Shown here: in pieces, positions 2,014-29,644 of the stretch | How the letters are laid out: every line of letters starts with the position of its first letter | How positions within the stretch are numbered: position 1 is the stretch's first letter | Source: a virus | Lineage: Duplodnaviria > Caudoviricetes | Strand: one strand, 5' to 3' | Virus record (IMG/VR): IMGVR_UViG_3300037157_000005 | Span: 1 to 30,601 of that record | Length of the DNA: 30,601 nt | Position numbers and translations under genes: made by a program | Notes under the pieces: generated by a model | Told to the model about the DNA's origin: nothing | The model's database searches: none | The model's input: the letters and a program-made list of their open reading frames with translations, nothing else

Positions 2014-3246
2014 ATGAGCAACGCTCTACTTACCCCGCAGATCATCGTCAACGAGCTACTGCGGCGCTTTCAGAACAACCTCGCTTTCGCCGGCGGAATC
2101 CGCCACGAATACGATGGCGAGTTCGGTCAAAAAGGCAGCAAGGTCGGGGACACGATCAATTTGCGCATCCCCGTGCGTTTCGGCGCTGCGGACGGCGCAA
2201 CCCTCGTTGTGCAGGATGTGACCGAGTTGAAGGTCCCGTTGACCCTCAACAAGCAGAAGCACGTCGGCTTCTCTTTCACCTCCAAGGATCTGACTCTCAC
2301 CGTGGATCGCTTCGGCGAGCGGTACTTGGATTCGGCGGCCGTCGCGCTGGCGAACCAGGTGGATCTCGACGGGCTCACCCTCGCATCGACCGCCGCATTC
2401 AACGCGGTAGGCACTCCCGGCACCATCCCGACCGCGCTGAAGACCTATAACTACGGCTCCGCGCTGCTCGATAAGTCCGGTTGCCCGTTCGACGAAAAGC
2501 GTTCGACGGTGATCACGCCGGATATGAACGTCGAGATCGTCGACGCGCTCAAAGGCCTGCTGGTTCCCGCCAAGCAGATCGGACCCCAATACGAGAAGGG
2601 CCGCATGGGTCATGCGGTGGGCCTCGACTGGAAGACCGATCAGAACTGCGTCACCCACACCTACGGGCCGCAGGGCGGCGCGCCACTGGTCAACACCGCC
2701 GGCCAGACCGGTTCCACGCTGCTCACCAAGGGCTGGACCGCCGCCGCCGCGCCGCGCCTCTCCGTTAGCGATCGTTTCACCATCGCTGGCGTCTATATGG
2801 TCAACCCGGTTTCCGGCGCCGTGTCCACCACGCTGCAAACCTTCGTCGTGACGGCCCCGTTCTCCTCGGCCGCCGATGGCACCGGCACCATTCAGATTTC
2901 GCCGGCAATCTCTTTGCCCGGCACCGGCACCAACGGGATCAACCCGTATGCCACCGTGTCGGCCTCGCCCGCTGACGGCGCCGCGATCACCGTGAACGGC
3001 GCAGCCAACGTGCTGAGCCCCACCGGCCTGATCTATCACCGCGATTCCATGGCCTTCGCCATGGCCGAATTGGAGCTGCCGCAGGGCGTCCACTTCCGCG
3101 CTCGCCAAACCGATCCGGACACCGGCATGAGTCTGCGGATCGTGTCGATGTACGATATCATGAACGATCTTTTTGCGACCCGCGTGGATTGCATATACGG
3201 TTTTGCCGTTGCTCTCCCCCAATGGTTGGTTGCAGTTCAGAGCTAA
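2014..3246 (+). CDS. Major capsid protein, P22 coat (gp5) family
   Basis: MSNALLT...N-L-F...R-YD-EF...K-GDTI-LR-P N-terminus, I-domain with D-FTIAGV--VNP, C-terminal R-D--YG; 410 aa; SD present. Confidence 0.93.
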   Translation: MSNALLTPQIIVNELLRRFQNNLAFAGGIRHEYDGEFGQKGSKVGDTINLRIPVRFGAADGATLVVQDVTELKVPLTLNKQKHVGFSFTSKDLTLTVDRFGERYLDSAAVALANQVDLDGLTLASTAAFNAVGTPGTIPTALKTYNYGSALLDKSGCPFDEKRSTVITPDMNVEIVDALKGLLVPAKQIGPQYEKGRMGHAVGLDWKTDQNCVTHTYGPQGGAPLVNTAGQTGSTLLTKGWTAAAAPRLSVSDRFTIAGVYMVNPVSGAVSTTLQTFVVTAPFSSAADGTGTIQISPAISLPGTGTNGINPYATVSASPADGAAITVNGAANVLSPTGLIYHRDSMAFAMAELELPQGVHFRARQTDPDTGMSLRIVSMYDIMNDLFATRVDCIYGFAVALPQWLVAVQS

Positions 3247-14588: not shown

Positions 14589-17500
14589 ATGGCCGACAAT
14601 CTGACCCCGCAAGACGCTCTGAGCGATCCGCAGTTTTACCAACTGCCGCATGAGACGCGCGTCGCCGTGCTCCAGCAGCTCGATCCGGACTTCGGCAAAC
14701 TGCCGAGCGAGGAGCAGGGTAAGGTCATCGCGTGGGGTTACTCTCAACTTCCCTCGTCTCAGGCCACCCTGCGGCCCAGCCAGAACGTGCCTCGCCCCGG
14801 CGAGAGCTATGGACAGACTGGCTCATCGGTCCACGCCGGCAACGTGCCTTTGTTGACCGAAGACGAACCGCAGCCCACCACGGCCCCCGGCATCCTGCCC
14901 CCGGCCGCTGGAATGCCGCGCGCCGGCGCAGCGCAGCCCGCACTGCCCACCGAACTGCAAGCCAATCCCGCCCCCGTGATGGCCCGCCACGGCCGCGGCC
15001 AGGTGGAGGCTCCGGTCCCGCAGCCAAACCCGTACAACCCGCTCGACTCGCCCGCGACCGGCGTGCAGCAGATGGTCACTGGCGTGGAGCAAAGCGCGGA
15101 ACCCATCGGAGCAGCCGCGCACGATGCCATGCGGCAGAGCTACCAAGATCCGGTAGCACTCACACCGGAATTGACGCGCCAGGGCGCGGGCGCGGCCTAC
15201 AAGATCGGATCGGGCGCGCTGCAGGCCGCCGCTCCTCTCATGATTCCCGCCGGCATCGCGGCCCAGCCGCTCAAGGCCGCGGCAACCCTCGGTATCAGCA
15301 TCGCCGGAACGGAAGCCACCAGCCATGGGCTGAAAGCGGCGGGCGTCCCGGACGAGTACGCCGACCTCGCCTCCCTGGTGTTCGGCGTTTGGGGAGCGGG
15401 CGAATTCAGCAAGATCGTCGGCGGCGAGTTTCCGCCCGAGATCACACCCGAAGCGAAGGCCCTGGCGCAACAGACCGGCGGCATTGCCTCGCCCGACGTC
15501 ACCCCCGCGCAGGCGGCGACCATGGCGGAACACATGCGCGGCGCAGGGCATCCCCTGGCGGCGAACGCCTGGGACAAGCTCAACACCTCGAAACCGCTGC
15601 CGCTGATCGTCGACGGCCAGCCCGCGCTGCTGCACCCGCCCGAGTCCGCGCCGACGTCCACCAGCATCCAGAACCCCGACACGCCATGGAACAGCCCCAC
15701 GCCCGTCGTCACGGGCCGCATGCCCGCTGTGCGCGTCACCGATCTCGCCGGTAACACCATCCACCTCGATACCGTGAGCGGCATCGATGGCTGGCTACGG
15801 CAGAAAGGCGTCATCGGCGATATTCCGCCGCAGCGCCCCGCCATCTTCGGCACGCCCTCGCAGGGCCTTTCACCCGAAGCGGAGGAAGGTATCGCTGCTC
15901 TCGGCCAGGAGCAGCAGTACATCCAAACCGCCGCCGGCCGGGTCAAGCTCCCAGACTGGTGGCAGCAGGCCATCCAAGACAACATCGCGGAAGTCCGCGC
16001 CGCCCAGGCGCAGCACGCCGTCAACCCCACGGCCCCCGCCGCGCCGCGCCCCATCGACACCTCGGGAGTCGCCGGCACGCCCGAAAACGCGCCACAGGTC
16101 ACACCAGCAGCCCCGCCAGCGAATCCGCAGGAAGCGCCTGGACCTACCGCACCCCCCGAAACCGTTCCCCCTGTTCCCACTCCACGGCCGCACGTCGCCG
16201 CGGCGAACCCCGCCGCCGGCTATCCGACCGGCGACACCGGCACGGTGAAGACCGCCGCCGGCACGCGCGCCGATTACCAGTGGGCATGGCTCCCGCGCAC
16301 GCAGGTTTTGGGCTCGCACGACGCGCAGGGCAACCCCAACCCGGATTTCCCGCAAGCCATTCAGCCGCGCGATCGCTCGCGCGATGCGCTCCAGGCCCAG
16401 GTCCAGCACATCGCCGCATCGCTCGACAACGAACAGACCGGACCCGACCCCATGGCGGATCGCGGCGCGATGCTGGTCGCGCCCATGTCCTCTCTGGGCC
16501 AGCCCAACGATCCGCGCTTCGCCACCGTATCGGGCAACGGCCGCAAGGCCGCTTTCGATCAGCTCGCCTCGACCGGCCATCCGAATTGGGACGGCTACCA
16601 GCAGTATTGGGCGGATCACGCCGAGGACGTGGGCGTCGATCCCAACCAGGTGCTTTCCAATCCGGACGGCATCATGACCCGCGTGCTGGTCCCGCATAAA
16701 AACCTCGACCTCGCGCGCTTCGCCGCCGAAGCCAACCAGGACGACAAAGCGGCCATGTCTCCCGTCGAACAGGCGAAAGCCGACGCCGCACGGCTCGCGC
16801 CGATTATGCCGCTGTTCCAGGCTGCGGAGAATGGCGAGATCATCCACCCCGGCAACCGCGATTTCATTCGCGCCTTCATGCAGGGCCTTCCCACAGGCGA
16901 GCAGGCCGGCTTGCAGACCCGCGACGGCCAGCTCTCCCAGGCTGGCGTCACGCGCATCCGCAATGCCGTGTTCGCGCACGCTTACGGCGCCGACACCGCC
17001 GCGCTCGAAAAGCTGGCCGAGTCTCCCGACTCCAATATCAGGAATATCACGAGCGGTATGTTGCAGGCCGCGCCCGCGTTCGCCTCGATGCGCCACGGCG
17101 TCGCGAGCGGCACGCTGTATCCCGGCACCGACCTCGCGCCCGACGTGTCGGCCGCCGCGGCGAAGCTCTCCGCGCTGCGCGAGAGCGGACAGACGATACC
17201 CGACTACCTGAAGCAGCAGGGATTGTACGGGCCGGAACTCACGCCCGAAGCTAAGATGCTGTTGCAGGCGTTCCACGCGCACCGCGCGAGCGCCAAGCGC
17301 ATCGGCGCCATTCTGAAGAACTACGCGGCGGCCGTCGAAGCCGCCGGCGATCCGAAACAGCAAGGCATGTTCGGCGTGCAAAGCGCGCCGACGAAAGGTG
17401 AATTACTTGAAGCCGCCATCCATCTCGCAGCCAAAGAACCCATCGCTCCCGTCGTCGAGCCAGGAACACAACTACTTCCCGTCGAACCGGCCGGCAATGG

Positions 17501-20500
17501 TGCGCCGTCTGATTCACCTGGTGCGCCTGAAGCAAGCGGCCAGCAGCCTGCCGGCGATGGCATCGCCGCGCCCACAGGGACTCCCGAGCCTGCCGAAGCT
17601 GCCGGGAGTGTAAGCCACGCCCTGCCGCACGCCCTCGCCGGCGCCAAGCCGCGCTATAGCTATGGCCCCAAACAGTTCGATCTGACGTTCGCCGACGATC
17701 TCGATAAGGCCGCATACATCTCAGCGCAGCCCAAGCGTTCCAAGCATGACGCCGATTACGTGAAGTGGGCGCGCGAACAGTCGGGCGCGTCCGAACAGGC
17801 CGTGCGGGATGCCGGCGCGCACGTGCGCGATCACATCAAGGCAATGGCACGCAGCGCGGAGCCTGGCGTGTTGCACGTGCCGGCGATCGCGCGGGAAAAA
17901 TTGAAGGCGCCAGCCCCCAGCCCCGAACCCCCAGCCCCCGCACCCGTCATTCCGCCGAAAGCGCCGACCAAGGGCGACATACCGCCGCAAGTGCGCACGC
18001 GCGTGAAGTGGGCCGTCGATACACTGAACGGCATCGCCGAAAAGCTGAAGCACGCCCGCGAGGCGGATCGCCAGTTTGGCAATGAAGGCCGGTACGAGTG
18101 GGAGACGTGGGAGAGCATCAACGACCGCGACAAACACATCGCCCAGGCGAAAGAGACGCTGGCGCTGTTCCGCGAGATGGCCACCGGCAAAGGCATCGAC
18201 CCCGAGGCCCTCATTAACGATCTGGGCGGCATCGGCGATTACGAACCGTCCGCTAAAGGCCGCGAGTGGGGCGGGCAGAAATCCTCAGCCCCCAGCCCCG
18301 AACCCCCAGACGCACCCCAGGCGGTCACCGCCGACGAGTACGTCGCGTCACTCACGGGCGATTCGAAGAACTTTGCCCAGCAATGGCTTGACCATCGAAG
18401 AGGAAAAGGGCCAGCGCCCGACGCCAGCAAATTCACATTCACCGAATCCGATGGAGACGCCATCGTCATTCGTGCGCGCATCAACGCCCGCGTGGACCAG
18501 GAAGAACAATCGCCCGTGGCCGCGCCAGCCGCCAAACAGCCATTGAAAGCCGGCTTTATGGTCGAAGGCCAGCCGTTCGCCATCGGTAAACTTCATTACG
18601 TCATTGCGGTGGTCAACCATCAGGGCAAGTTACTCGGCCAAGCGCATATGTTTTCGAGCGGCGCGCGCAGCGACCAGGTGGCAGGACGCAACGGCGACGG
18701 CACATGGCACAAATCGGGCGCCTGGATAGGTCAGCAGTGGGCCGACGCGCACGGCGCGCAGCTCGAAGAGGAATACCAGAAGATCGCCGCGCACGTGGAA
18801 CCCGCGGCCGCCACTATCCCGCCCAAAGCGCCGACGAAAATGGGCACCCCCGAACAGCGCCAGCAGGTTTATCAAATGGCCGCCGACGCCCTGTTTACCT
18901 GGGCGAACGATGTGCAGCGCCAGCTTGCGCAAGTGGATTGGAAACCGCAGGCCGACGACACGGCGGTAGCGCAGCTCCGCAAAGTCATTGCCCGCGCCGA
19001 AGAGATCGAAAAGACCGTCGCCGCTCCCGAAAATTCGCCTGCCGCCGACGCCCTGCACGCGCGCCTCCAGTTTGCGCGCGGACAATTATCCGACTTGGAA
19101 AAGCGGATGGCCGCCGCGGAACCCGTTGCCAGCGAGCCCGACCTCACCGACAAAGAGAAAGCCTTTATCGACGCCGCCTACGAGCGCCTGCGCGGCGAAG
19201 GCTTCAAAGACAATCCCGACCTGCAGCGCTTCGCCACCGAAATCTTCGGCGGCGATCGCCACGCCGGCAAGTGGAACATCAAGCAGGTTTACGATCTGCT
19301 GGAGGCGGCCGTAGCCAAGTACATCGACAGCCACCGCCAGGGCTTCACGCCCAAAGCGGCCCTCGCCGAAGTCCGCGCGCTGATGGCGAAACTGCCGCGC
19401 CAGGTGGACCGTACCGCGGGACAAGAAGCCTTCCAACAATTCTCCACGCCGCCGACGATCTCGCTCCTCGCGGCCGTGGCCGCGCACTTCGGGAAATCCG
19501 ATATCGCGCTCGAACCTTCCGCCGGCACCGCCATGCTCGCCGTGTGGGCGAAGGCCGCCGGCGTCGCGCACATCGAAACCAACGAAATCGATCCGCACCG
19601 CCGCGCCATCCTGCGCTATCTGGGATTCACTCCCACCGCGCACGATGCCGAGCAGCTTCACAACCTCACCGAAACGCGCCCCACCGTAGTCGTCATGAAT
19701 CCGCCTTTTTCGGCGGCCGGCAATCGCGGCATCACCAAAGATCAGACCGTGGCGCAACGCCACGTCGAACAGGCGCTACACATGCTCGTCGACGGCGGGC
19801 GCCTGGTGGCGATCCTCCCGGGCGGACGCACCGGAATGCCGACCGAAGGCGCGGCGCTCGATGGCGGCTGGAGCAACTGGTGGGAGAAGATCGCGGCCAC
19901 TTACAACGTGCGCGCCAACGTCTTGCTCCCCGGCAAAGAGTACTCGAAATACGGCACCACTTACCCGACGCGCCTCGTGGCGATCGATAAGACCGGCGCG
20001 ACACCGGGCGGGAAAAGCGCGATACTGAGCACAGATGCCGCCGACCTCGACGCCGCCCTCGAAATCGCCGCCCAGATTGGAAGCGACCGCCCAAACCTTG
20101 CTCAACCAGGTGTGGGACCTGTTCAGCCTCGCGCTGGAGAAGTCTCCGGATCTGGAACAGATGTTGCCGACGTTTCAAATCCCGACGACCAAGGCAGTCC
20201 ACGACAGCCTGGACCAGTGGGATCCGATCGCGTTCCTGGCGAAGTGGAAGCGGGTAAACCCGAGCCTGCCGCCGCGGAGGGTAGCGGAGATCGCGGACCA
20301 GGACGACCCGAGCCTGCCGGATCTGCGGACAGTGGCGCAAGCGGCGATGCAAGTCCTCTCGCCGGAAACGGATTAGCGGGCGCGCTGGGCGTTTCGCCCG
20401 AAGACCTCATCGACCAGATTGCGGAAGCGCTCGGCGCTCCTGCTGCTGCTGCCGAACCGAGTTCTAAACCCACTCCCGCGGCAGCACCGGCGCCCAAAAA

Positions 20501-23500
20501 ACGCATTCCGCCGAAGGCACGCACCAAAGGACAGAAGGCCCCCGCACCGGCCCCGGCCCCGGTACCGGCGCCGCCCGTCAATCCGCTGAAGGCTGCCGCC
20601 GAGGCTGCCGCCAAACGGCTCCGCGACAAATACCTGAACGGCGCGCAGCTCAACATCGGCCTCGACCCCGCCGACGCGAAAGACGTCATGGTCATGGGCG
20701 CATCGCTCATTCTCGACGGCGCGCACAAGTTTAAGGATTGGTCCACGCGCATGGTGGAATCCTTCGGCCCGCTGCTGAAGGCTATGGCCGCGCAGATCGG
20801 CCAGAGCGTACAGAATCTCCTGCGCGACATTCACCAGCTCGCCGCCGCGGCGGCCAAGCGTTTCGGCGTGGAAGCCGAGGCGACGCCCGCCGCGGAGCCC
20901 GAAGCGAAACAGCATCCCGCCGTCAAGCTGGGCCTGAATCCCCTAGCGCATCAACAGCAGGACGTGGGCGGCGGTACGTTCACGCATTACGTTCCGGCGA
21001 AGCTCATCGGCGGCGCACCCCACCCAGCCCCCATCGTCCAATCCGCGCCGCTCGCCGCCGTGGATCCGCCCGATATCACTTACCTGCCGAAGTTCGATCC
21101 CGCGCTCATGACCGATGGCCGCATATCGAACGTGCAGCTCGAAACCATCGCCTATGCAGGCCAGCGCCATGCGCGCAAACTCGCGGACGGCACGCGCGCA
21201 GGTCTGTTTATCGGGGATGGCACCGGAGTTGGCAAGGGCCGCGAGATCGCCGGCATCATCCTCGACAATTGGGCGCAAGGCCGCAAGCGTTCGATCTGGG
21301 TATCCGCCTCGCAAGACCTGATCGAAGACGCGCAGCGCGATCTGACCGACCTCGGCGCGGCGATCCCCATTCGCGTGGTGAATGACTGGAAAGCCTCGGC
21401 TCCGATCGATCTCGACGCCGGCATCGTGTTTCTCACTTATAACTCGCTGATCGGTGAGTCCGACGATCCGAGCGACCAGAATGCCGCGCCCAAAACGCGC
21501 CTCGACCAATTGACGAAGTGGCTGGGCGACGATGGCGTAATCGTCTTCGACGAAGGCCACCGCATGAAAGGGGCGTTCGACGACGGCGCCGGCGAACCCA
21601 CCAAGACCGGACAAGCCGGCATCGATCTGCAGGACCATCTGCCGAATGCGCGGGTAGTCTACGCCTCGGCCACCGGCGCAACCGAAGTCCGCAACATGGC
21701 TTACATGACCCGCCTGGGCCTGTGGGGCGACGGCACGCCATTCCCGCAGTTCGGCAACTTCCTCGCCAGGATCGACCAGGGCGGCGTGGGCGCCATGGAG
21801 GCCGTCTCGCGCGATCTCAAGGCGCACGGCGCTTATATGGCTCGCACGCTTTCGTACGAGGGCGTCCAATACGACGAAGTACATCATCACCTTTCCGACG
21901 CGCAAAAGCACGTCTATGACACCGCCGCGAACGCATGGCTCAAAGTCATCGCGAAAATTCAGGATGCCATCGTCTCGACGCACGCACCAGGCCGCGCCCG
22001 CGCCCGCGCGCTCTCGCAATTCTGGGCGACACACCAATTATTTTTCAAGCGGCTCATTACCGCGCTGAAGGTTCCTACCGCCATTACCGAAATTCAGAAG
22101 GCGCTCGACAACCATCAGAGCGTCGTGGTTTCCGTGGCCACCACCGGCGAAGCGCAGCAAAAACGCATGCTGCAACAGGCGCGCGAGAATGGCTCCTCGC
22201 TCGACGATCTGGATTGGTCTCCGCGCGAAGTGCTCGACCATCTCATCGCCCAAGTGTTTCCGATCCATGCCAACGAAGAGTATGTGGATCCGAAGACCGG
22301 CCAGAAGAAATGGCGGCCGGTCAAAGACGCGGACGGAAACCCCGTGATCGACCGCGTGGCGCTCGCCCAGCGCGAGGCCTTGCGCGACTCCCTCACCGAC
22401 GTGGCGCTCCCCGGCAACCCCATCGACTTGCTGCTCGAAAAGTTCGGTCCCGAGAACGTGGCGGAACTGACCGGCCGCAAGGAACGTATCCAGGCCAACG
22501 CCCAGACCGGCAAGAAGGAAGTCGCCAAAAGGAAATCCGAAGGCGTAGCGGCGAAGAAAAACAACCTCGCGGAAATGGCGGCATTCCAGGCGGGCAAGAA
22601 ACACATCGCTATCATCAGCGACGCGGCATCGACGGGCATCAGCTTGCACGCCGACCGGCGCGCGGGCAATCAGCAACAGCGCGTACACATCGCCCTCGAA
22701 TTGAAATGGAGCGCGGATAAGCAGCTCCAGGACTTCGGCCGCACCCACCGCTCGAACGAAATGAGCGCGCCTAAATACGTGCTGCTCTCGACCGACCTGG
22801 GTGGCGACAAGCGCTTTTCAGCGACCATCGCCCGCCGTCTCGCTTCGCTGGGCGCACTGACGCAAGGCTCGCGCGATGCGTCGGCCGGCGGCGAGATCGC
22901 CAAGTACAATTTCGAATCGACTTACGGCCAGCAGGCCGTGACGACTTTGCTCGCCGAACTGGCGCGGCAGCAATCCAGCCCGCGCGAGATGCAGGTGTGG
23001 GCCATCAAGCAAAACGCGTTTAAGAATTTCGGCGGCGAAGGCGCCCTCACTGCGCGCTACACCGGCGAACGCATGCGCGAGATTCTGGGCCTCCGTCCCG
23101 ATCAAAATCTTAACGGCATCGGGAGTCCCGAGGGCCGCGGCATCATCCGCCAGCTCACCCGCCGCGATGTGACCATCGGCGACGAATCGGCCGCGGGAAC
23201 TTACCAATTCACCGACGAAGTACGGGACGCCACCGCACCCGCCCAGGACGGCCGCGAGCTGCTCGCCAAGATCGGCCTGATGCGGCGCAACGATCTGACG
23301 CGCTTGCCCGAGGGCAATCCTATCCCTGCCGGCGTGCCGCAATTCCTCAATCGCGTGCTTTCGCTCCCCGTGGCCGAACAGAATAACCTCTTCGAACGCT
23401 TCGTGAACCTGTTCGCCAACGCCATCGAGACGGCCAAACGGCAAGGTTCGTTCGATGAAGGCGTCGAGGACCTCAAGAACGCCGAAGCTATCCGCGTAGT

Positions 23501-26500
23501 GCATTCCGACCTGGCGCACCAAGCCGACGATGGCGCACAGACCTGGCACTACCACCTGGAGATCGACGAGAAGACCGAACCGCTCTCCTGGGCCGACGCC
23601 AACCAGCGGCGCAGTCTCCGCGATAGCGTGGATCCGATCCGCAGCGGTCGGCCGTCCGGGTTCTACAAACAGAACCGCAGCGGCAACATCGTGCTCGCCG
23701 TCAATGGCGGCACATCCACCAACCTGGACAGCGGCGCGACCTCGCGCAATTATGCCCTGTCGCGTCCCAACGGCGCGGTGGAGCGCATGGCTACCGCCGA
23801 GTTCGACGAGAAGTACTCGCCCGTCTCGGAAGAAGAAGCGCGGCGCTGGTGGAACGAGAAATATCAGGGTGTGCCCAAGATCCGCACGCGCGAGCTGCAT
23901 TTGATCGGCGGCGCGATGCTGCAATTCTGGGATCACCTGGAACATGCCGGCGCGCACGGTATGCACGTCATCCGCGCGCAGGCCGACGACGGCCAGCGAG
24001 TTGTCGGCGTCGAGATTCCCAACCGCGCCGTGGCGGAAGTGCTGAAGGCTTTGGGCGTCGGACGCGAAGCCACCGACCCCGCGGATGTATTCGCCGCGCT
24101 GGGGCAAGGCGCGGAAATCCAACTGGCGGGCGGCCTGAAGCTGCGCGCCACCAAAGTCCACCGCGAGGATGCCTATGAGATCGCGGACGCCAAGCTCGCC
24201 GACTTCTCCACCATCGAAGCGGCCGGCGCGATCGCCGAACGCATCGACGGCAAGAAGCGCTTTTTCATTCCGACCGAACAGGCAGCAGGCCTGCCCGTGC
24301 TGAAGGCAATTCTCGACCGCTGGCCCGTGATGCGCGCGAATACCGGCGATCAATTGCACTCACGCCGCCGGGGAGAGCGTGGGCCGATTTTTGAACAGTT
24401 TCGTCACGACGAAAAGGGCGCCACGGCTGCCTTGGTAAAAGCTCAGAATGGCGAGGCCATCGGAGCACTTGAGGATAAGAAGTTTGGGTACGGCGACGTG
24501 GATCTAGTCTGGGGATACAAAGGCATCGCCCCTCCAGAGTGGAAACAAGGCTACGGCCTGGCGCATATCCTGGCAAAACATCCGTGGCTCAAAAACCATT
24601 TACAGGAGATGTTCGACCGAATGACGCGCGCGGCGGCCCATGGACCCGAGCGAGTCGATCTATCGAATGAGCGAGGTGAACACGCAGTACTCGCCTTGAC
24701 TTGGTTTGGGCGGGAAAAGAAAACATGGCTTCTCACGGAATACGATAAGCCGCCAGCTTCCGAACGAATCCTTGACGGTTCCGGTAATCCCGTTTCCGGG
24801 ACCAGCAGGCCGACTTCCCCACTGACTGGCGGCTCCGATACTAGTGTGACGCCACCGAAGGCCCCAGTCAAGAGTGACGGCACGCTCGACGCACGGCGCG
24901 GTACTTCCCCTGGTTCCCTGGCTCCCAACGCGCCCCGCGCCGTCTACAAGCGCGGCGTCGTCTTCGCTAACCCCGCCGCCGTCGCGCTGATTCACCGCGC
25001 CGAAAAAACTCATGACGAATGGGACGCCACTCTATTGAGTGCCCCCAGCGCGTTCGCGCTGCGCGGCGCGCTGATGCGGATGTCGATGGGCAACACGCCC
25101 GACAAAGACGCGCTGCGCTCGCTTGCCGAGATGCTGGCCGAGGCGCAGAAAGAAAACGCCGAGGTGCTCCTCACCGAAGTGAAGCCCGGCGAATCCTTCG
25201 CCTCGCTGAAATCGAAGATCCGCCACGAACGCATGCACCGCGCACAACACGCGCTGGCCGCCAGCGGCAGCGTGCGCGATCACGTCGATTGGGACACCCT
25301 GCTCAATCATCCGCTGGCCGGACGCGCCGCGAAGCGATTGATGAACGACGGCTATCCCGCCGACGATCCGATCCTGGCAGCGGAGATCGGCGCGCACCTG
25401 GCGAGCGGACCCATAGGCTGGAAACGCATGGGACTCTCGGACGCCGATGCCTTCGCACTCTACCGCGCTTACGTGAATCTGTTGAACGCCACGCACGTCA
25501 AGGACGTGAACGCGCACCTGGCGCATGTGGACCCGCGTTTAGCGACAATCAGGTATGGACAAGAAACCGCCGCACAACCCGACGCGCGATCTCATGCGGG
25601 CAGCGAAAGTGAATCCGAAGGCCTTCGAGGAGGAGTTTCGGAAGCAATTCCCGACAGCGGACCTCAGCAAGACCTGTTCGGATCCGCCGACAGCAACGCC
25701 GCAGCCGAAGCCGCCGGCAGAGCAAAACTCACCGCCGACCAGCTAACCGCCGAATTTAACTCGCCCACGCGCGGCAAGACCAAACGCGCTCCCAAGCCCG
25801 TCCAGACGTCCATCTTCGACGAGACGCCCGAAGACGATCAGCCATCGCTGTTCTCCCGGCGCCGCCAGTATCTCGATACGACCCAAGACCCCGCCACCAC
25901 GCGCAGCGGCCGCGTCAAAGCGCAAGTGCTCGAACCGCTCGCCGACGTGGCGCATTTCGTCCACGAGACGCGCGACGATTTCCGGCGCGTCTTCAATCCC
26001 GCCGCGCTGCCACAGGCCGACCGCGCCGCGCTCAATCTGCGCTATCAGGCGGCCACGCAGGCCCGCGACTACGCGCGCGTCGAGCGCGCCCTGTCGAAAG
26101 CCCGCGCCTACTTCGCCGGCCAGCCATGGGATGACAACCTCGCTTTCATCAACCGCATCGAAGCCAACGAACCGCAACCGAACGAGCAGCTCCAACAGAT
26201 CGCCGACGTCATGCGCGAGGCTCTCGACCGCTACCGCGATGCCGTGCAGGGCCTCGGCACGGGTAAGTTGTCTACGTTCTATGAGACTTACTTCCCGCAT
26301 CTGTGGCAGAGGCCGGCGCAGGCCGTCGACGCCTTCAAAATGATTTTTGCCCGCCGTCCGATCGAGGGCACCAAGAGTTTCCTGAAGCAACGTAAATTTC
26401 AGAGCTTCCAGGAAGGCGTCGATGCCGGCCTGAAACCAGTGTCGGAGAATCCCGTCGATCTGGTGCTGGCGAAGACCATGGAGATGGGCCGGTACTTGCT

Positions 26501-29024
26501 CGCGCATCGCTGGCTGGCGGAACAGAAGCGCATCGGCGAAGCGCGCTACGTGCCCGCCCGCATGCTCAAGCGCGCGCCGCGCGGCTGGACGCAGCTCCCC
26601 GACCCCATCGGCGTGGTGTACGGCAATCCGCGCGTGCCCGTGCGCGAGCTGCTCGACAAGGAAATGATGGGCGGCCTGGAGAAGCAGCTCGCGACGCTGG
26701 GCGTCGACCATCAGCGCGCCGTCAAGATCGGCGGAACCAGGTGGGGCTACGCCGTGGGCGACAAACACATCACCACGCGCTTTGGAGGCCCTGAATCGAT
26801 CCTGATCCATGAGTTAGGTCACATCCTAGACGAACGGTACCACTTAGCCAGTCAGTTAGTAAATGTGAAGCCGTACCGCGAGGAACTGCGCCAACTGGCC
26901 GACGAACGGAAGGACGATCCGAACGACCGCGGCAGCTATCACAAGTACGTGCGCAACGGCCACGAGAAGATCGCCAACATGGTGGCGGCCTGGGTCCACA
27001 ACCGCAAGCGCTTCGAGCGCATCGCCCCCAACAGCTTCCGCTTCTTCAGCCGCTTTGTCGCGGCGCGTCCGGAGCTGGCCGAACTCGGCCGGCTGGAATA
27101 CGGCATGAAGCTGGAGATGCTGCGCAACGAGATCGACACCGGCGGCCTGCTGATTCGCGGCTACTGGTACGTTCCCGCCGGCGCGGCCGTCGTCGCCAAG
27201 AATTACCTCTCCCCCGGACTCTCCCGCAAGGCGTGGTATCGCGGCCTGCGTGGGTTCGCCAATGCCACCCTGCAATTCGCGCTGGGCTTCAGCGGCTATC
27301 ACGCCGGGTTCACCGCGGGCGAGGCCATGGTCTCGCGTCTCTCGGTAGCCATCGAAGCGGCGGCGGCCGGTCAAGGCGAACTGGCGATCGCCAACGCGCT
27401 GAAGGTTCCGGTTTCCGCCGTGTCGAACGTGGTCACCGGCGACAAGATCATTCACGCCTACCTCGAACCGGCCGGCGCCGATCCCGCCATGCTGCGTTTC
27501 GTCGACGCGCTCACTCAGGGCGGCGGGCGCATCAAGATGGACGAACAGTATCGGACGCGCTTCCGCCAGCGGTTCTCCGACGCTTGGGCGAAGTCCGGTA
27601 CCGCGGGCAAGCTGTTTCAGATCGCCAACCCGCTGCACGGCCCGCGCAACATCGGAGCCATCGCCGAGGCCGCCTCGTGGCCGGTCATGGAGTGGCTTGT
27701 GCCGCGCCAGAAAGTCGGCGCGTTCGCCGCGATGGCCGAGCGCATCATGCAGCAGTATCCCGACGCCAGCAAGGAAGAAATGCGCCGCAGGTTCGCGCAG
27801 GCCTGGGACTCCATCGACAACCGTTTCGGCCAGATGGTCTATGACAATCTGTTCTGGGATAAGATGGCCAAAGACCTCGCCATGATCTCCGTCCAATCCG
27901 TAGGCTGGAATCTCGGGACGTTCCGCGAGATCCTGGGCGGCCTGGGCGATTATGGAAAATTCGCCATACAGGCCGCGCGCTACGGCGCCGCGAAGATCGG
28001 CGGGCAGGGCAAGCCGCCCGACGACGACGACGAAGACGGCGCAACTCCCGCAGGCGGCGGAACTAATCCACCAGCCACCAGCCACGAGCCACCAGCCACC
28101 GGCAAGCCCTACGTGCTGCCGCCGGAAGTGACGCCGCGCATGGCTTACGTGCTGGCGCTTCCGATACTCACCGGCATGGTGGGCGCAGTGACCACTTACC
28201 TCAACACCGGCGAGGGACCGAAGGACTGGCGCGACTATTTCGCGCCTCCGACCGACGCCTCGCGCACGCGCCGTATATCGCTCCCGACTTACATGAAGGA
28301 CGTCATTCATTGGGCCGAGCGTCCCGGCCAGGCCGCGGTGAACAAGATCCACCCATGGCTGCGCACGGCCGTCGAAGGCATGCGCAACGAAGGTTACGAC
28401 GGCACGGAAATCTATAATCCGAAAGACCCGCTGGTGACGAAGGCCGTCGCGCTGGCGAAGCACCAGCTTGGAACCTTCGAGCCTTACGCCGTGAGTAACA
28501 CGCTGCGCTCGCGCGATGCCGGCGACTCACTCGCCATGCAGCTCGCGCCTCAGGCCGGTATCACCCGCGCGCCGAGTTACCTCACTCAGACTGACGCCGA
28601 ACGGCGCATGTCGGAGATTGCCGACGAAGGCCACGGCGGCGCCGCGCGCACGCCGGAACAGGCCGCGCGATCGCGCGCCAAAGGTGAACTGACTCGCCTC
28701 GCGCGAGAAGGCGATCCGCGTGTAGGATCGCGGGCACAAGAGCTGTTCCAAAATGGAACACTTACCGAAAAGGATCTGAGAGACGTCATTCGCGATGCCT
28801 CGAAAGACGCCGACGTACAGCATTTCGAGAGACTCACCGCCGAGCAAGCTATCGAGGTGTACTCAGTCGCCACGCCCGCCGAGAAACAGGCATGGCTGCC
28901 CGACCTGGCGAAGAAGATCACCACCCTGAATCACCGCTCGCCCGCGGAGTTTGAAGCGTTCGAACGCCGCTGGGCTCCGGAGCTGCAAACCGCCATCGCG
29001 GATGCACAGCACGCCACGCAGTAA
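14589..29024 (+). CDS. Giant polyvalent protein (4811 aa): ddrB-like ParB, N6-adenine MTase, Strawberry-notch SF2 helicase, PBECR-type RNase, two HExxH peptidase motifs, large C-terminal domain
   Basis: QPRDR (16362) and SGNGR (16530); LEPSAGT (19509) and NPPF (19698); GDGTGVGKG (21213), DEGH (21549), SAT, GRTHRSN; DLVWG...GYGLAHI-KH...WLLT (24380-24750); HERMH (25224); HELGH (26808). Confidence 0.92.
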   Translation: MADNLTPQDALSDPQFYQLPHETRVAVLQQLDPDFGKLPSEEQGKVIAWGYSQLPSSQATLRPSQNVPRPGESYGQTGSSVHAGNVPLLTEDEPQPTTAPGILPPAAGMPRAGAAQPALPTELQANPAPVMARHGRGQVEAPVPQPNPYNPLDSPATGVQQMVTGVEQSAEPIGAAAHDAMRQSYQDPVALTPELTRQGAGAAYKIGSGALQAAAPLMIPAGIAAQPLKAAATLGISIAGTEATSHGLKAAGVPDEYADLASLVFGVWGAGEFSKIVGGEFPPEITPEAKALAQQTGGIASPDVTPAQAATMAEHMRGAGHPLAANAWDKLNTSKPLPLIVDGQPALLHPPESAPTSTSIQNPDTPWNSPTPVVTGRMPAVRVTDLAGNTIHLDTVSGIDGWLRQKGVIGDIPPQRPAIFGTPSQGLSPEAEEGIAALGQEQQYIQTAAGRVKLPDWWQQAIQDNIAEVRAAQAQHAVNPTAPAAPRPIDTSGVAGTPENAPQVTPAAPPANPQEAPGPTAPPETVPPVPTPRPHVAAANPAAGYPTGDTGTVKTAAGTRADYQWAWLPRTQVLGSHDAQGNPNPDFPQAIQPRDRSRDALQAQVQHIAASLDNEQTGPDPMADRGAMLVAPMSSLGQPNDPRFATVSGNGRKAAFDQLASTGHPNWDGYQQYWADHAEDVGVDPNQVLSNPDGIMTRVLVPHKNLDLARFAAEANQDDKAAMSPVEQAKADAARLAPIMPLFQAAENGEIIHPGNRDFIRAFMQGLPTGEQAGLQTRDGQLSQAGVTRIRNAVFAHAYGADTAALEKLAESPDSNIRNITSGMLQAAPAFASMRHGVASGTLYPGTDLAPDVSAAAAKLSALRESGQTIPDYLKQQGLYGPELTPEAKMLLQAFHAHRASAKRIGAILKNYAAAVEAAGDPKQQGMFGVQSAPTKGELLEAAIHLAAKEPIAPVVEPGTQLLPVEPAGNGAPSDSPGAPEASGQQPAGDGIAAPTGTPEPAEAAGSVSHALPHALAGAKPRYSYGPKQFDLTFADDLDKAAYISAQPKRSKHDADYVKWAREQSGASEQAVRDAGAHVRDHIKAMARSAEPGVLHVPAIAREKLKAPAPSPEPPAPAPVIPPKAPTKGDIPPQVRTRVKWAVDTLNGIAEKLKHAREADRQFGNEGRYEWETWESINDRDKHIAQAKETLALFREMATGKGIDPEALINDLGGIGDYEPSAKGREWGGQKSSAPSPEPPDAPQAVTADEYVASLTGDSKNFAQQWLDHRRGKGPAPDASKFTFTESDGDAIVIRARINARVDQEEQSPVAAPAAKQPLKAGFMVEGQPFAIGKLHYVIAVVNHQGKLLGQAHMFSSGARSDQVAGRNGDGTWHKSGAWIGQQWADAHGAQLEEEYQKIAAHVEPAAATIPPKAPTKMGTPEQRQQVYQMAADALFTWANDVQRQLAQVDWKPQADDTAVAQLRKVIARAEEIEKTVAAPENSPAADALHARLQFARGQLSDLEKRMAAAEPVASEPDLTDKEKAFIDAAYERLRGEGFKDNPDLQRFATEIFGGDRHAGKWNIKQVYDLLEAAVAKYIDSHRQGFTPKAALAEVRALMAKLPRQVDRTAGQEAFQQFSTPPTISLLAAVAAHFGKSDIALEPSAGTAMLAVWAKAAGVAHIETNEIDPHRRAILRYLGFTPTAHDAEQLHNLTETRPTVVVMNPPFSAAGNRGITKDQTVAQRHVEQALHMLVDGGRLVAILPGGRTGMPTEGAALDGGWSNWWEKIAATYNVRANVLLPGKEYSKYGTTYPTRLVAIDKTGATPGGKSAILSTDAADLDAALEIAAQIGSDRPNLAQPGVGPVQPRAGEVSGSGTDVADVSNPDDQGSPRQPGPVGSDRVPGEVEAGKPEPAAAEGSGDRGPGRPEPAGSADSGASGDASPLAGNGLAGALGVSPEDLIDQIAEALGAPAAAAEPSSKPTPAAAPAPKKRIPPKARTKGQKAPAPAPAPVPAPPVNPLKAAAEAAAKRLRDKYLNGAQLNIGLDPADAKDVMVMGASLILDGAHKFKDWSTRMVESFGPLLKAMAAQIGQSVQNLLRDIHQLAAAAAKRFGVEAEATPAAEPEAKQHPAVKLGLNPLAHQQQDVGGGTFTHYVPAKLIGGAPHPAPIVQSAPLAAVDPPDITYLPKFDPALMTDGRISNVQLETIAYAGQRHARKLADGTRAGLFIGDGTGVGKGREIAGIILDNWAQGRKRSIWVSASQDLIEDAQRDLTDLGAAIPIRVVNDWKASAPIDLDAGIVFLTYNSLIGESDDPSDQNAAPKTRLDQLTKWLGDDGVIVFDEGHRMKGAFDDGAGEPTKTGQAGIDLQDHLPNARVVYASATGATEVRNMAYMTRLGLWGDGTPFPQFGNFLARIDQGGVGAMEAVSRDLKAHGAYMARTLSYEGVQYDEVHHHLSDAQKHVYDTAANAWLKVIAKIQDAIVSTHAPGRARARALSQFWATHQLFFKRLITALKVPTAITEIQKALDNHQSVVVSVATTGEAQQKRMLQQARENGSSLDDLDWSPREVLDHLIAQVFPIHANEEYVDPKTGQKKWRPVKDADGNPVIDRVALAQREALRDSLTDVALPGNPIDLLLEKFGPENVAELTGRKERIQANAQTGKKEVAKRKSEGVAAKKNNLAEMAAFQAGKKHIAIISDAASTGISLHADRRAGNQQQRVHIALELKWSADKQLQDFGRTHRSNEMSAPKYVLLSTDLGGDKRFSATIARRLASLGALTQGSRDASAGGEIAKYNFESTYGQQAVTTLLAELARQQSSPREMQVWAIKQNAFKNFGGEGALTARYTGERMREILGLRPDQNLNGIGSPEGRGIIRQLTRRDVTIGDESAAGTYQFTDEVRDATAPAQDGRELLAKIGLMRRNDLTRLPEGNPIPAGVPQFLNRVLSLPVAEQNNLFERFVNLFANAIETAKRQGSFDEGVEDLKNAEAIRVVHSDLAHQADDGAQTWHYHLEIDEKTEPLSWADANQRRSLRDSVDPIRSGRPSGFYKQNRSGNIVLAVNGGTSTNLDSGATSRNYALSRPNGAVERMATAEFDEKYSPVSEEEARRWWNEKYQGVPKIRTRELHLIGGAMLQFWDHLEHAGAHGMHVIRAQADDGQRVVGVEIPNRAVAEVLKALGVGREATDPADVFAALGQGAEIQLAGGLKLRATKVHREDAYEIADAKLADFSTIEAAGAIAERIDGKKRFFIPTEQAAGLPVLKAILDRWPVMRANTGDQLHSRRRGERGPIFEQFRHDEKGATAALVKAQNGEAIGALEDKKFGYGDVDLVWGYKGIAPPEWKQGYGLAHILAKHPWLKNHLQEMFDRMTRAAAHGPERVDLSNERGEHAVLALTWFGREKKTWLLTEYDKPPASERILDGSGNPVSGTSRPTSPLTGGSDTSVTPPKAPVKSDGTLDARRGTSPGSLAPNAPRAVYKRGVVFANPAAVALIHRAEKTHDEWDATLLSAPSAFALRGALMRMSMGNTPDKDALRSLAEMLAEAQKENAEVLLTEVKPGESFASLKSKIRHERMHRAQHALAASGSVRDHVDWDTLLNHPLAGRAAKRLMNDGYPADDPILAAEIGAHLASGPIGWKRMGLSDADAFALYRAYVNLLNATHVKDVNAHLAHVDPRLATIRYGQETAAQPDARSHAGSESESEGLRGGVSEAIPDSGPQQDLFGSADSNAAAEAAGRAKLTADQLTAEFNSPTRGKTKRAPKPVQTSIFDETPEDDQPSLFSRRRQYLDTTQDPATTRSGRVKAQVLEPLADVAHFVHETRDDFRRVFNPAALPQADRAALNLRYQAATQARDYARVERALSKARAYFAGQPWDDNLAFINRIEANEPQPNEQLQQIADVMREALDRYRDAVQGLGTGKLSTFYETYFPHLWQRPAQAVDAFKMIFARRPIEGTKSFLKQRKFQSFQEGVDAGLKPVSENPVDLVLAKTMEMGRYLLAHRWLAEQKRIGEARYVPARMLKRAPRGWTQLPDPIGVVYGNPRVPVRELLDKEMMGGLEKQLATLGVDHQRAVKIGGTRWGYAVGDKHITTRFGGPESILIHELGHILDERYHLASQLVNVKPYREELRQLADERKDDPNDRGSYHKYVRNGHEKIANMVAAWVHNRKRFERIAPNSFRFFSRFVAARPELAELGRLEYGMKLEMLRNEIDTGGLLIRGYWYVPAGAAVVAKNYLSPGLSRKAWYRGLRGFANATLQFALGFSGYHAGFTAGEAMVSRLSVAIEAAAAGQGELAIANALKVPVSAVSNVVTGDKIIHAYLEPAGADPAMLRFVDALTQGGGRIKMDEQYRTRFRQRFSDAWAKSGTAGKLFQIANPLHGPRNIGAIAEAASWPVMEWLVPRQKVGAFAAMAERIMQQYPDASKEEMRRRFAQAWDSIDNRFGQMVYDNLFWDKMAKDLAMISVQSVGWNLGTFREILGGLGDYGKFAIQAARYGAAKIGGQGKPPDDDDEDGATPAGGGTNPPATSHEPPATGKPYVLPPEVTPRMAYVLALPILTGMVGAVTTYLNTGEGPKDWRDYFAPPTDASRTRRISLPTYMKDVIHWAERPGQAAVNKIHPWLRTAVEGMRNEGYDGTEIYNPKDPLVTKAVALAKHQLGTFEPYAVSNTLRSRDAGDSLAMQLAPQAGITRAPSYLTQTDAERRMSEIADEGHGGAARTPEQAARSRAKGELTRLAREGDPRVGSRAQELFQNGTLTEKDLRDVIRDASKDADVQHFERLTAEQAIEVYSVATPAEKQAWLPDLAKKITTLNHRSPAEFEAFERRWAPELQTAIADAQHATQ
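17407..17613 (+). CDS. Candidate nested +1-frame gene in linker after ParB module
   Basis: AGGTGA SD-like 5 nt before TTG 17407 (GTG 17398 and ATG 17497 are alternatives); host frame becomes A/T-rich at codon position 3 while +1 frame reads MVRRLIHLVRLKQ...LPKLPGV. Confidence 0.4.
   Translation: MKPPSISQPKNPSLPSSSQEHNYFPSNRPAMVRRLIHLVRLKQAASSLPAMASPRPQGLPSLPKLPGV
17910..17937 (+). repeat. In-frame heptamer array CCAGCCC/CGAACCC, copy 1
   Basis: CCAGCCC CCAGCCC CGAACCC CCAGCCC; 24 bp identical to 18286-18309. Confidence 0.85.
18285..18309 (+). repeat. In-frame heptamer array, copy 2
   Basis: TCAGCCC CCAGCCC CGAACCC CCAG. Confidence 0.85.
19998..20026 (+). promoter_or_regulatory. Candidate internal sigma70-like promoter for nested gene 20035
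   Basis: GCGACA-N17-GATACT, 8 nt before ATG 20035 (leaderless geometry). Confidence 0.4.
20035..20376 (+). CDS. Nested +1-frame gene (113 aa) in MTase-helicase linker
   Basis: From about 20077 the +1 codons end mostly in G/C and encode an amphipathic helical sequence, while the host frame gives G/P/S/D/R filler with A/T third positions; bias reverts after TAG 20376. Confidence 0.72.
   Translation: MPPTSTPPSKSPPRLEATAQTLLNQVWDLFSLALEKSPDLEQMLPTFQIPTTKAVHDSLDQWDPIAFLAKWKRVNPSLPPRRVAEIADQDDPSLPDLRTVAQAAMQVLSPETD
24747..24836 (-). ncRNA. Candidate ~90-nt antisense structured RNA behind the PBECR nuclease domain
   Basis: Perfect 9-bp terminal inverted repeat (24748-24756 / 24826-24834) extended by G-U pairs on minus strand only; internal UGGUCCCG-GAAA-CGGGAUUA hairpin; begins 7 nt after predicted -10. 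Confidence 0.6.
24843..24871 (-). promoter_or_regulatory. Antisense sigma70-like promoter
   Basis: Minus strand TTGACT (24871-24866)-N17-CACACT (24848-24843). Confidence 0.6.
25555..25746 (+). CDS. Nested +1-frame gene (63 aa) in linker after first HExxH domain
   Basis: GACAAT -10-like hexamer 5 nt before ATG; +1 codons G/C-ending (RDLMRAAKVNPKAFEEEFRKQFP) while host frame uses CGA/GGA/CTT/GTT/AGA. Confidence 0.55.
   Translation: MDKKPPHNPTRDLMRAAKVNPKAFEEEFRKQFPTADLSKTCSDPPTATPQPKPPAEQNSPPTS
28065..28099 (+). repeat. In-frame CAGCCAC heptamer array
   Basis: AATCCAC CAGCCAC CAGCCAC GAGCCAC CAGCCAC encoding NPPATSHEPPAT; same unit as 829-904. Confidence 0.9.
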
Positions 29025-29053
29025 GTCGCGTGGGCTTGCCAATAACCCACTTT

Positions 29054-29644
29054 ATGACGACCGATAAACCTGTGCGCGCGGCGATCTACGCGCGTGTTTC
29101 GACTGACGATCAAAACTGTGAGATGCAATTGACCGATCTCCGCGAGTACTGCCAGCGGCGTGGCTGGGAGATTGTCGCGGAGTATGTGGACACCGCATCC
29201 GGCATCAAAGCCTCGCGCCCGCAGCTCGACCACTTGATGCACGAGGCCGCGACGCGCAAGTTCGACGCCGTGCTGGTGTGGAAGCTGGACCGCTGGGCCC
29301 GCAACCTGGGCAACTTCGTGACTAGCGTTTCGACGCTGGCATCGCTGGGCGTCCGCTGGCTGTCCATCACCCAGAACCTGGACACCGATCAAACGAACCC
29401 CATGGCGCGCTTCATGATCGGCATACTTGCCGTCTTCGCCGAGTTCGAACGCGATATCACGCGGGAGAGATGCCTCGCCGGCATCGCCAAGGCCAAGCGT
29501 AGCCGCGTGCAGTTGGGCCGCCACCTGAAGGTCTTCGACCGGGACCGCGCGCGCGCGCTCAAACGCGCCGGTAGTTCGGTGCGCGAGATCGGCCGCGTCC
29601 TCGGTGTGGGCAAGTCTACCGTCGCGCGCCTGCTGGCCGCTTAG
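29054..29644 (+). CDS. Small serine recombinase (resolvase/invertase family)
   Basis: YARVSTDDQ catalytic motif, D-ASG---RP-L, KLDRWAR, FAEFER--ER--G---AK, C-terminal HTH; ATG 29054 preferred to GTG 29030. Confidence 0.95.
   Translation: MTTDKPVRAAIYARVSTDDQNCEMQLTDLREYCQRRGWEIVAEYVDTASGIKASRPQLDHLMHEAATRKFDAVLVWKLDRWARNLGNFVTSVSTLASLGVRWLSITQNLDTDQTNPMARFMIGILAVFAEFERDITRERCLAGIAKAKRSRVQLGRHLKVFDRDRARALKRAGSSVREIGRVLGVGKSTVARLLAA

Follow-up and report, generated by a model that had tools for sequence, protein, structure and literature searches.

Organisation of the locus

The window, the whole 30,601-nucleotide stretch of viral DNA analysed here, is a phage late-gene block with a P22-type coat protein encoded at 2014-3246 and a giant gene whose product is, as Iyer et al. 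2017 (PMC5512222) use the term, a DarB-like polyvalent protein. The 4811-aa protein combines ddrB-ParB, methyltransferase-like and Strawberry-notch SF2 helicase domains with a PBECR1 domain, and the linker behind PBECR1 carries a predicted promoter and a predicted structured RNA on the opposite strand. The features are listed below with the evidence for each.

14589..29024, plus strand: giant DarB-like polyvalent protein gene, 4811 aa, 14.4-kb ORF (Pfam domains)
24372..24752, plus strand: PBECR1 domain, predicted BECR-fold RNase (Pfam PF18809, E 1.6e-6, aa 3300-3387)
24579-24581 (His) and 24735-24737 (Thr), plus strand: proposed active-site codons of PBECR1 (homolog columns)
24747..24836, minus strand: predicted ~90-nt non-coding RNA with a four-way junction (fold, top match of model R2, clade covariation)
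24835-24825 with 24757-24747, minus strand: closing stem P1, 11 bp (minimum-energy fold)
24803..24824, minus strand: hairpin P2, 7 bp, with an 8-nt loop beginning GAA (fold, R2, clade covariation)
24787..24802, minus strand: hairpin P3, 6 bp, with a GAAA tetraloop; other family members have a variable P3 or none (fold, alignment)
24760..24784, minus strand: hairpin P4, with a 13-nt loop that has UUC at its end (R2 alignment, clade covariation)
24817-24815 with 24768-24766, minus strand: loop-loop pairing of GAA with UUC (R2 alignment)
24843..24871, minus strand: predicted antisense sigma70-type promoter lying over linker codons (motif; position and type kept in homologs)
24871-24866 and 24848-24843, minus strand: -35 element TTGACT and -10 element CACACT, separated by a 17-nt spacer (sequence)
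29030..29644, plus strand: serine resolvase gene, next downstream of the giant gene (Pfam Resolvase, E 1.7e-41)

Because the serine resolvase gene is the next gene downstream, no small immunity-type gene stands behind the giant gene. This agrees with the sequence-only reading of this DNA, which had noted the absence of an adjacent protein immunity gene and had proposed that the hidden RNA silences the RNase domain instead.

Homologous loci come from five named phages and from three scans that confirmed 248, 159 and 337 relatives, of which the best 80 per scan were taken, so the set leans toward relatives of the queries. The 245 loci yield 254 PBECR1 domain matches, 251 of them with enough tail, and these reduce to 109 distinct PBECR1 tails at <80% amino-acid identity, the window copy included. 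Counted as domains, not genomes, and labelled from record titles, 30 of the 109 have proteobacterial hosts, 21 Bacteroidota hosts and 58 other or unidentified hosts. Four loci (L001, L007, L246 and L248) match the window at 100% identity and do not count as independent; the only close relatives found with DNA are L008 and the distal unit of L018.

The PBECR1 domain

The PF18809 match in the window scores 29 bits, above the curated cut-off of 27.6, and both the domain and the WLLTEYD motif recognised in the sequence-only reading are present. Pfam assigns this stretch to PBECR1 only and not to the ToxN/AbiQ, CptN or TenpN families. The near-invariant alignment columns are K65 (His in the window), H70, R94, W119 and T122. 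In the predicted structure, H70 ends the helix spanning residues 62-69 and T122 lies within the strand spanning residues 115-125; the AlphaFold model of the domain has a pLDDT of 91.5. The candidate catalytic His is found in 107 of the 109 domains (five of them read by eye), with Arg in the other two, and the candidate catalytic Thr/Ser is found in all 109.

A PDB sequence search with the domain profile returns nothing below E 0.5, and Foldseek with the model returns nothing at E<=0.001. In the structure search, which has a tool threshold of Z 8, the best match is CdiA-CT NC101 (Z 5.1, rmsd 3.6, 77 aligned); BrnT (Z 4.9, rmsd 3.4, 68 aligned), CdiA-CT BWH57 (Z 4.8, rmsd 4.5, 89 aligned) and colicin D (Z 4.4, rmsd 2.3, 65 aligned) are also retrieved. 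These whole-domain matches to BECR RNases are weak, and unrelated propeller fragments score equally. Colicin E5 is not among the 50 matches listed in this search. A link to colicin E5 drawn earlier is not supported as stated: the His/Thr site of PBECR1 is of the colicin D type and not of the E5 type (PMC5512222, section 19). The domain does have AT-richer codons, as had been noticed, with a GC3 of 0.58 against 0.77 gene-wide, placing it in the lowest 3% of same-size windows.

We know of no PBECR1 domain with known RNase activity or toxicity, and of no known substrate or means of self-protection for PBECR domains. According to section 19 of PMC5512222, PBECR domains are predicted RNases that the virion delivers and that, like colicin D, have a His and a Thr/Ser; Iyer et al. 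there stop at a prediction of RNase activity and suggest non-toxic roles. Up to 26% of the polyvalent proteins of phages contain PBECR domains (PMC5512222), and the main text of that paper, from which the words 'antisense' and 'noncoding' are absent, names no RNA partner or immunity factor for them.

The antisense promoter

The minus-strand arrangement TTGACT-N17-CACACT at 24871..24843 is present as first described, with the predicted start G24836 lying 7 nt past the -10 hexamer. It scores 9.3 bits with sigma70 base frequencies; higher-scoring antisense sites occur at two other places in the giant gene, and a consensus promoter scanner leaves it unlisted (8 of 12 matches). Taken from the window alone, the promoter and the fold are modest signals, suggestive only and not striking. 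Both stand above chance because they are conserved in homologs.

In the homologs, promoters were sought on the antisense strand from 80 to 240 nt past the WLLT motif. Specifically, sigma70 sites of at least 8 bits occur there in 21 of the 30 proteobacterial tails, against 1/30 on the sense strand, 1/30 within the domain, 4.4% of downstream windows (n=90) and 5.8% of shuffles. The motif TAnnTTTG, the promoter element of Bacteroidota, is found antisense in 20 of the 21 Bacteroidota tails, against 0/30 proteobacterial tails and 9% of shuffles (Fisher p 6e-8 for the sigma70 contrast and 3e-13 for the TAnnTTTG contrast). In two Helicobacter prophage genes, extended -10 motifs, the promoter type of this group, number 10 antisense and 0 sense in one and 8 antisense and 3 sense in the other, mostly ~30-45 codons past domain-like ends. 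At a third Helicobacter tail, in H. pylori phage L273, no extended -10 was found and the model match is weak (E 0.54). Comparison establishes the promoter motif and its strand at the level of sequence. That the promoter changes type with the host's polymerase while keeping its place speaks more strongly than any other observation for a transcribed unit.

Antisense promoters also stand behind PBECR3 (3/3), LPD3 (3/3) and PBECR2 (1/1) domains, where the RNAs have folds that differ from the PBECR1-type RNA; behind other domains they occur in only 4 of 43 cases, and behind MuF_C in 0/1. LPD3 is a domain without assigned function.

The folded RNA and its family

The minimum-energy fold contains the 11-bp closing stem with nine Watson-Crick and two G-U pairs, exactly as described in the sequence-only reading. 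The GAAA hairpin is likewise present, with 6 bp in the best fold and not the 8 bp claimed for it, since its two outer pairs compete with P2. A supposed hairpin with a GUCAA loop is, by homology, part of the open 13-nt loop, and hairpin P2 (24824-24803) and the GAA/UUC loop-loop pairing had been missed altogether. G-U pairs do occur, but the family-type fold has six of them and not four. Folding of the 106-nt region gives z -2.83 for the minus and z -2.15 for the plus strand; a 95-nt cut of the RNA reaches z -3.79, and a better fold is found in 1 of 151 tiles of the giant gene. The U-tract past P1 is weak in the window. ARAGORN finds 0 tRNA genes in the window, and the window RNA matches none of the tRNA, tmRNA, Y RNA or C4 models of ARAGORN and Rfam.

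Across the homologs, a fixed 100-nt tail window gives a mean z of -2.36 antisense and -1.80 sense, against -0.60 in the domain and -0.08 downstream, and the antisense fold is better than the sense fold in 71 of 109 tails. A two-loop motif pattern is present in 60 of the 109 tails, 57 of which were aligned by sequence. The family structure consists of closing stem P1, hairpin P2, a variable P3, hairpin P4 with its 13-nt loop, and a pseudoknot, formed by a covarying 3-bp helix in which the first bases of the P2 loop pair with the last bases of the P4 loop. In the 57-row alignment, whose structure was drawn by eye from few rows and whose rows are pre-selected and related, 89.3% of cells are paired, with two-sided changes at 23 of 24 pairs and 39-53% in slid controls; the loop-loop helix is paired in 98.2%. 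Outside the seed, complete loop-loop pairing is found in 30 of 36 rows (38 model matches minus two seed rows; three of the 36 fit the motif pattern), against 9.6 +/- 2.5 in 5000 shuffles. This covariation establishes the fold and the pseudoknot.

The pairs include 113 G-U against 19 A-C, and DT dipeptides of the linker use the Asp codon GAC in 123 of 133 cases against 87 of 144 elsewhere. The G-U excess and the GAC bias therefore indicate selection on the minus-strand bases and not on the peptide. Additionally, a U-rich tract lies behind P1 in 68 of 95 model matches.

The window RNA is missed by model R1. Model R2, built from 38 matches with no window-type RNA among them, was applied to the whole window and ranks the window RNA first (19.6 bits, rough E 0.0022; next 12.5 bits), aligning its 8-nt P2 loop and 13-nt P4 loop and pairing GAA with UUC; at E<0.2, neither R1 nor R2 finds any further copy there. 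In four related units (the window, L008, the distal unit of L018, and L154), 86.7% of cells are paired and nine two-sided changes occur. The cognate RNA of L008 is missed by R2 and has one mismatch in the loop-loop pairing. The window RNA is a divergent member of the predicted family.

The trinucleotide GUC is found in 89 of 93 P4 loops and 79 of 93 P2 loops and may still be a substrate-like motif. Both loops of L008, the closest distinct relative of the window, are without it. An earlier suggestion of tRNA-Asp mimicry is not supported in its original form: GUC lies in the 13-nt P4 loop and in P2 loops of 5-13 nt and is not centred in a 7-nt loop, the arm at the anticodon position is the variable and often absent one, and L008 lacks GUC altogether in both loops. 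A ribozyme was also considered and dropped, as there is no invariant junction core and the conserved bases lie in loops and depend on the clade.

Linkage, cassette movement and additional RNAs

Applied to 300 kb from 100 of the 104 distinct loci, R2 returns 96 matches, exclusively minus-strand and spread over 90 loci; 94 of the matches lie within ~320 nt behind a PBECR1 domain. Many of these matches are training sequences, and the informative part is therefore that no matches occur elsewhere, which establishes a one-to-one linkage to PBECR1. Ten of the 100 loci have no R2 match at default filters, and seven of these reach E<0.1 unfiltered. The domain is internal to its protein in most loci. 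In Campylobacter phage L274, the domain stops at a stop codon, and the promoter and fold persist in non-coding DNA; a second unit then follows behind what seems to be the decayed end of a further domain.

Domain, RNA and promoter move together as one ~500-bp unit, which bears out an earlier proposal, made from codon composition, that they form a cassette. Among 1295 pairs of near-identical domains, which are non-independent and come mostly from a few gut-phage clusters, DNA likeness ends inside the RNA, before +120, in 0 and just past the promoter, at +120 to +200, in 702. For example, a 17.8-kb contig has only a 538-bp stretch, from domain through promoter, in common with gut-phage locus L022. 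In the chromosomal murC of one Caenarcaniphilales genome, a ~500-nt cassette is inserted in frame with its active site intact, giving a product of 668 aa, whereas all eight relatives compared lack the cassette and have products of 451-523 aa; a 461-aa murC allele without it is 93% identical over the first 674 nt. P0039 belongs to the same lineage as the genome with this insertion. Neither a target duplication nor a terminal repeat is found at the murC junctions, and plasmids give no cassette match. Tandem copies are present in L010, L098, L122, L154 and L238. A failure of the homologs to keep the promoter or the stem had been named in advance as grounds for abandoning the RNA; promoter, stems, strand and cassette behaviour are all conserved.

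Four loci (L018, L008, L021 and L178) contain extra RNAs resembling those of other PBECR1 clades. In L018, a window-type RNA (74/93 nt) precedes the locus's own RNA, the L018 and window domains being 43% identical. L008 carries two units that have their own promoter and no domain in front; one of them matches the L085 RNA (63/92 nt), the L008 and L085 domains being 40% identical. The extra units of L021 and L178 are closest to the L002 and L122 RNAs. The L021 provirus, at 99% completeness, has two RNAs and a single PBECR1 domain; for the L008 and L018 records completeness is ~60%, so a cognate domain could sit in the missing part. The second unit of L151 is a duplicate of its own unit, and the distal unit of L144 has no close match. 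RNA similarity correlates with protein similarity (Spearman 0.56), for which linkage alone suffices.

On these comparative grounds, the linker RNA is a real family, undescribed in the literature searched (main texts of mostly open papers) and without an Rfam match (0 in the window at gathering score, 0 in 20 loci at E<=1). The accessible text of a BECR classification preprint (10.64898/2026.08.28.747851) makes no mention of antisense or of an RNA antitoxin, the main text of PMC10910872 holds no description of the RNA, and neither does the text of PMC4176332, whose supplement may list an antisense transcript for a related gonococcal prophage gene. The PBECR1-specific RNA family and its pseudoknot are new, as are the switch of promoter type with the host, the foreign RNAs and the insertion in murC.

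Proposed role of the linker RNA

The comparative evidence is all compatible with an RNA-antitoxin role, and the chances are about even that the linker RNA is an antidote that inhibits, by binding to it, the predicted RNase domain with which it is encoded. The host's housekeeping polymerase would transcribe the RNA both in the lysogen and during infection. The RNA would fold compactly, with the two loops held together and their conserved bases presented to the protein, and would silence the predicted RNase in cells producing the giant virion protein. It would also neutralise a like RNase injected by an incoming related phage, which would explain why RNAs of other PBECR1 clades are kept without a domain; a domain injected into a naive cell would be active ahead of the RNA or in its absence. 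An antidote would account for the restriction to RNase-type domains, the conserved loop bases, the tolerance of the cassette in murC and the retention of foreign RNAs. In murC, where the active site is intact, a toxic domain would need constant antidote. Against such a role, a tight-binding RNA would tend to be packaged along with the protein.

The last point is absent if the RNA is instead a required partner, that is, a cofactor, guide or cargo of an RNP, injected or active in the lysogen, since no inhibitor would have to be stripped at packaging. One-to-one linkage, conserved loop bases and tertiary pairing fit a partner equally well, as do different RNAs for different domain families. The variable part is a hairpin, however, which leaves no freely variable single-stranded segment for a guide, RNAs retained without a domain are more readily explained as protection, and the known BECR RNases described in PMC9086364 work without RNA cofactors. 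A partner role is regarded as unlikely.

That domain, RNA and promoter form a selfish sub-genic mobile unit, with the RNA serving mobility or addiction and any benefit to the phage secondary, is rather improbable, although in its addiction form it would be compatible with an RNA antidote. It draws on the exact in-frame unit in murC that all eight relatives lack, on the clean ends of DNA likeness outside the RNA, on the isolated 538-bp stretch and on the tandem copies. The chromosomal case is nevertheless a single lineage, P0039 included, whose junctions bear no mark of target duplication or terminal repeat; the unit contains no recombinase or reverse transcriptase and has no plasmid match; and ordinary linker recombination would yield the same mosaic in pairs drawn mostly from a few gut-phage clusters.

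Improbable to a similar but slightly greater degree is a cis-antisense regulator, type I- or STnc6030-like, that pairs with the giant mRNA and lowers leaky or superinfecting late expression. The antisense position suits it, and so does the U-tract past the closing stem, as in a discrete small RNA. Pairing would not need a loop sequence and pseudoknot conserved across phyla, however, and would not be restricted to RNase-type domains; start and stop are both uncovered in most loci, and the fit is poor with non-cognate RNAs and with the murC copy, where an essential gene would be silenced. In type I toxin-antitoxin systems, the antisense RNA overlaps a small toxin mRNA at its 5' or 3' terminus, whereas the window RNA lies midway in a 14.4-kb ORF. 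A precedent is STnc6030 of Salmonella prophage BTP1, described in PMC7067206 as a lysogen-expressed antisense RNA in late genes that mediates superinfection exclusion. Both RNAs lie antisense inside phage late genes; STnc6030 is 786 nt long, with proposed base pairing and no domain tie (PMC7067206), whereas the PBECR1-linked RNA is ~90 nt, structured, family-wide and tied to RNase-type domains.

A low-complexity linker whose peptide or chance composition mimics promoter and fold, with no functional RNA at all, would suit the modest signals of the window itself and is very improbable, being contradicted by the promoter switch, covariation, synonymous bias, strand asymmetry and persistence past a stop codon.

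Relation to known systems and implications

An RNA antidote to PBECR1 would invite comparison with type III toxin-antitoxin systems (ToxIN, CptIN and TenpIN), which, as described in PMC12283969, tie an endoribonuclease-type protein one-to-one to a pseudoknotted RNA, as here, and like PBECR1 loci sometimes have non-identical tandem units and occur on phages. Their defining layout places antitoxin repeats upstream of the toxin gene on the same strand, with a shared promoter and a terminator between (PMC12283969). At the PBECR1 locus, in contrast, the RNA lies downstream and antisense, nested in the protein's reading frame, with its own promoter. Instead of short tandem H-type pseudoknot repeats before a terminator, it has a ~90-nt multi-arm fold, in which the covarying 3-bp loop-loop pairing supplies a pseudoknot of different topology, and the protein is a predicted BECR-type domain of a virion polyprotein and not a ToxN-like toxin. 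The best reading of this analogy is that the RNA/PBECR1 pair would act like type III while falling outside its defining layout and toxin family.

The orphan units of the putative antidote RNA recall orphan immunity genes. The colicin D-like and CDI BECR tRNases described in PMC9086364 (CdiA-CT NC101, Kp342 and EC3006) have a weak whole-domain likeness to PBECR1, whose conserved Lys/His/Arg/Thr set is reminiscent of the Kp342 and EC3006 residues. The antidotes there are proteins encoded downstream (PMC9086364), and none such is present at the PBECR1 locus.

More broadly, and tentatively, at somewhat less than an even chance, virion polyproteins may contain a hidden layer in which RNase-type domains each have an antisense linker RNA, travel as sub-genic cassettes and make up either an immunity array of RNAs against rival clades or the partner of an injected RNP. 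Cassette movement would on these terms extend even into essential host genes, and the arrangement would raise the possibility of RNA-based immunity of phage against phage. The recurring odd linker peptides of polyvalent proteins would be explained as imprints of promoter and RNA. Such RNA genes form a class that escapes intergenic motif searches, and cloning PBECR-type domains without their tail would remove their control. A cognate linker RNA makes the question of PBECR substrate and self-protection directly testable and, if its proposed role is true, would have no precedent in the literature searched as an antidote or partner RNA of a BECR-fold RNase.

RNA units and cassettes in unusual settings

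In the homologous locus L157:481-2484 (G001) from a Ca. Caenarcaniphilales genome, a MurC ligase carries PBECR1, the predicted antisense RNA and its promoter inserted in frame, a cassette absent from relatives. A second insertion of ~60–70 aa, unrelated to the cassette, lies upstream of it. L008, the nearest non-identical relative of the window, has two predicted RNA units in tandem within its giant gene (L008:569-790), with their own predicted antisense promoter and no PBECR1 domain ahead. In a Campylobacter phage, a predicted promoter and RNA occupy non-coding DNA past the stop codon of a C-terminal PBECR1 (L274:3870-4250), a stretch annotated as tiny hypothetical ORFs; beyond them lies what reads as a degenerate remnant of another domain's end, which a further RNA appears to accompany. 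A 2H phosphoesterase/Acb1-like anti-CBASS domain (L018:690-950) immediately precedes PBECR1 within one polyprotein.

Antisense features of polyvalent genes

The window's giant gene contains a second low-GC3 stretch (0.52–0.58) behind a methyltransferase-like domain, at 19989-20400 (aa 1801–2000), with no scoring antisense promoter, and two further well-folding antisense tiles (20 shuffles each):

Window 15729-15823, minus strand, z -4.4
Window 27889-27983, minus strand, z -3.4

Two Helicobacter prophage polyvalent genes carry repeated antisense extended -10 motifs, mostly located behind domain ends and imprinted in the peptides ILPQ and NSTT:

L275:1987-9279
L276:1-7404

Other polyvalent domains

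Antisense promoters and folded RNAs with different shapes are predicted behind four further domains:

LPD3: L010, L229, L151
PBECR3: L062, L210, L153
PBECR2: L150
LPD13: L135

The single protein P0027 combines two PBECR1 domains with one PBECR3 and one PBECR2, and the same promoter-imprint peptide (S/I-x7-VK type) follows each of the four. The promoters and folded RNAs behind both LPD3 and LPD13 suggest that these domains are RNase-like, and the predictions also suggest that each polyvalent domain family has its own RNA.
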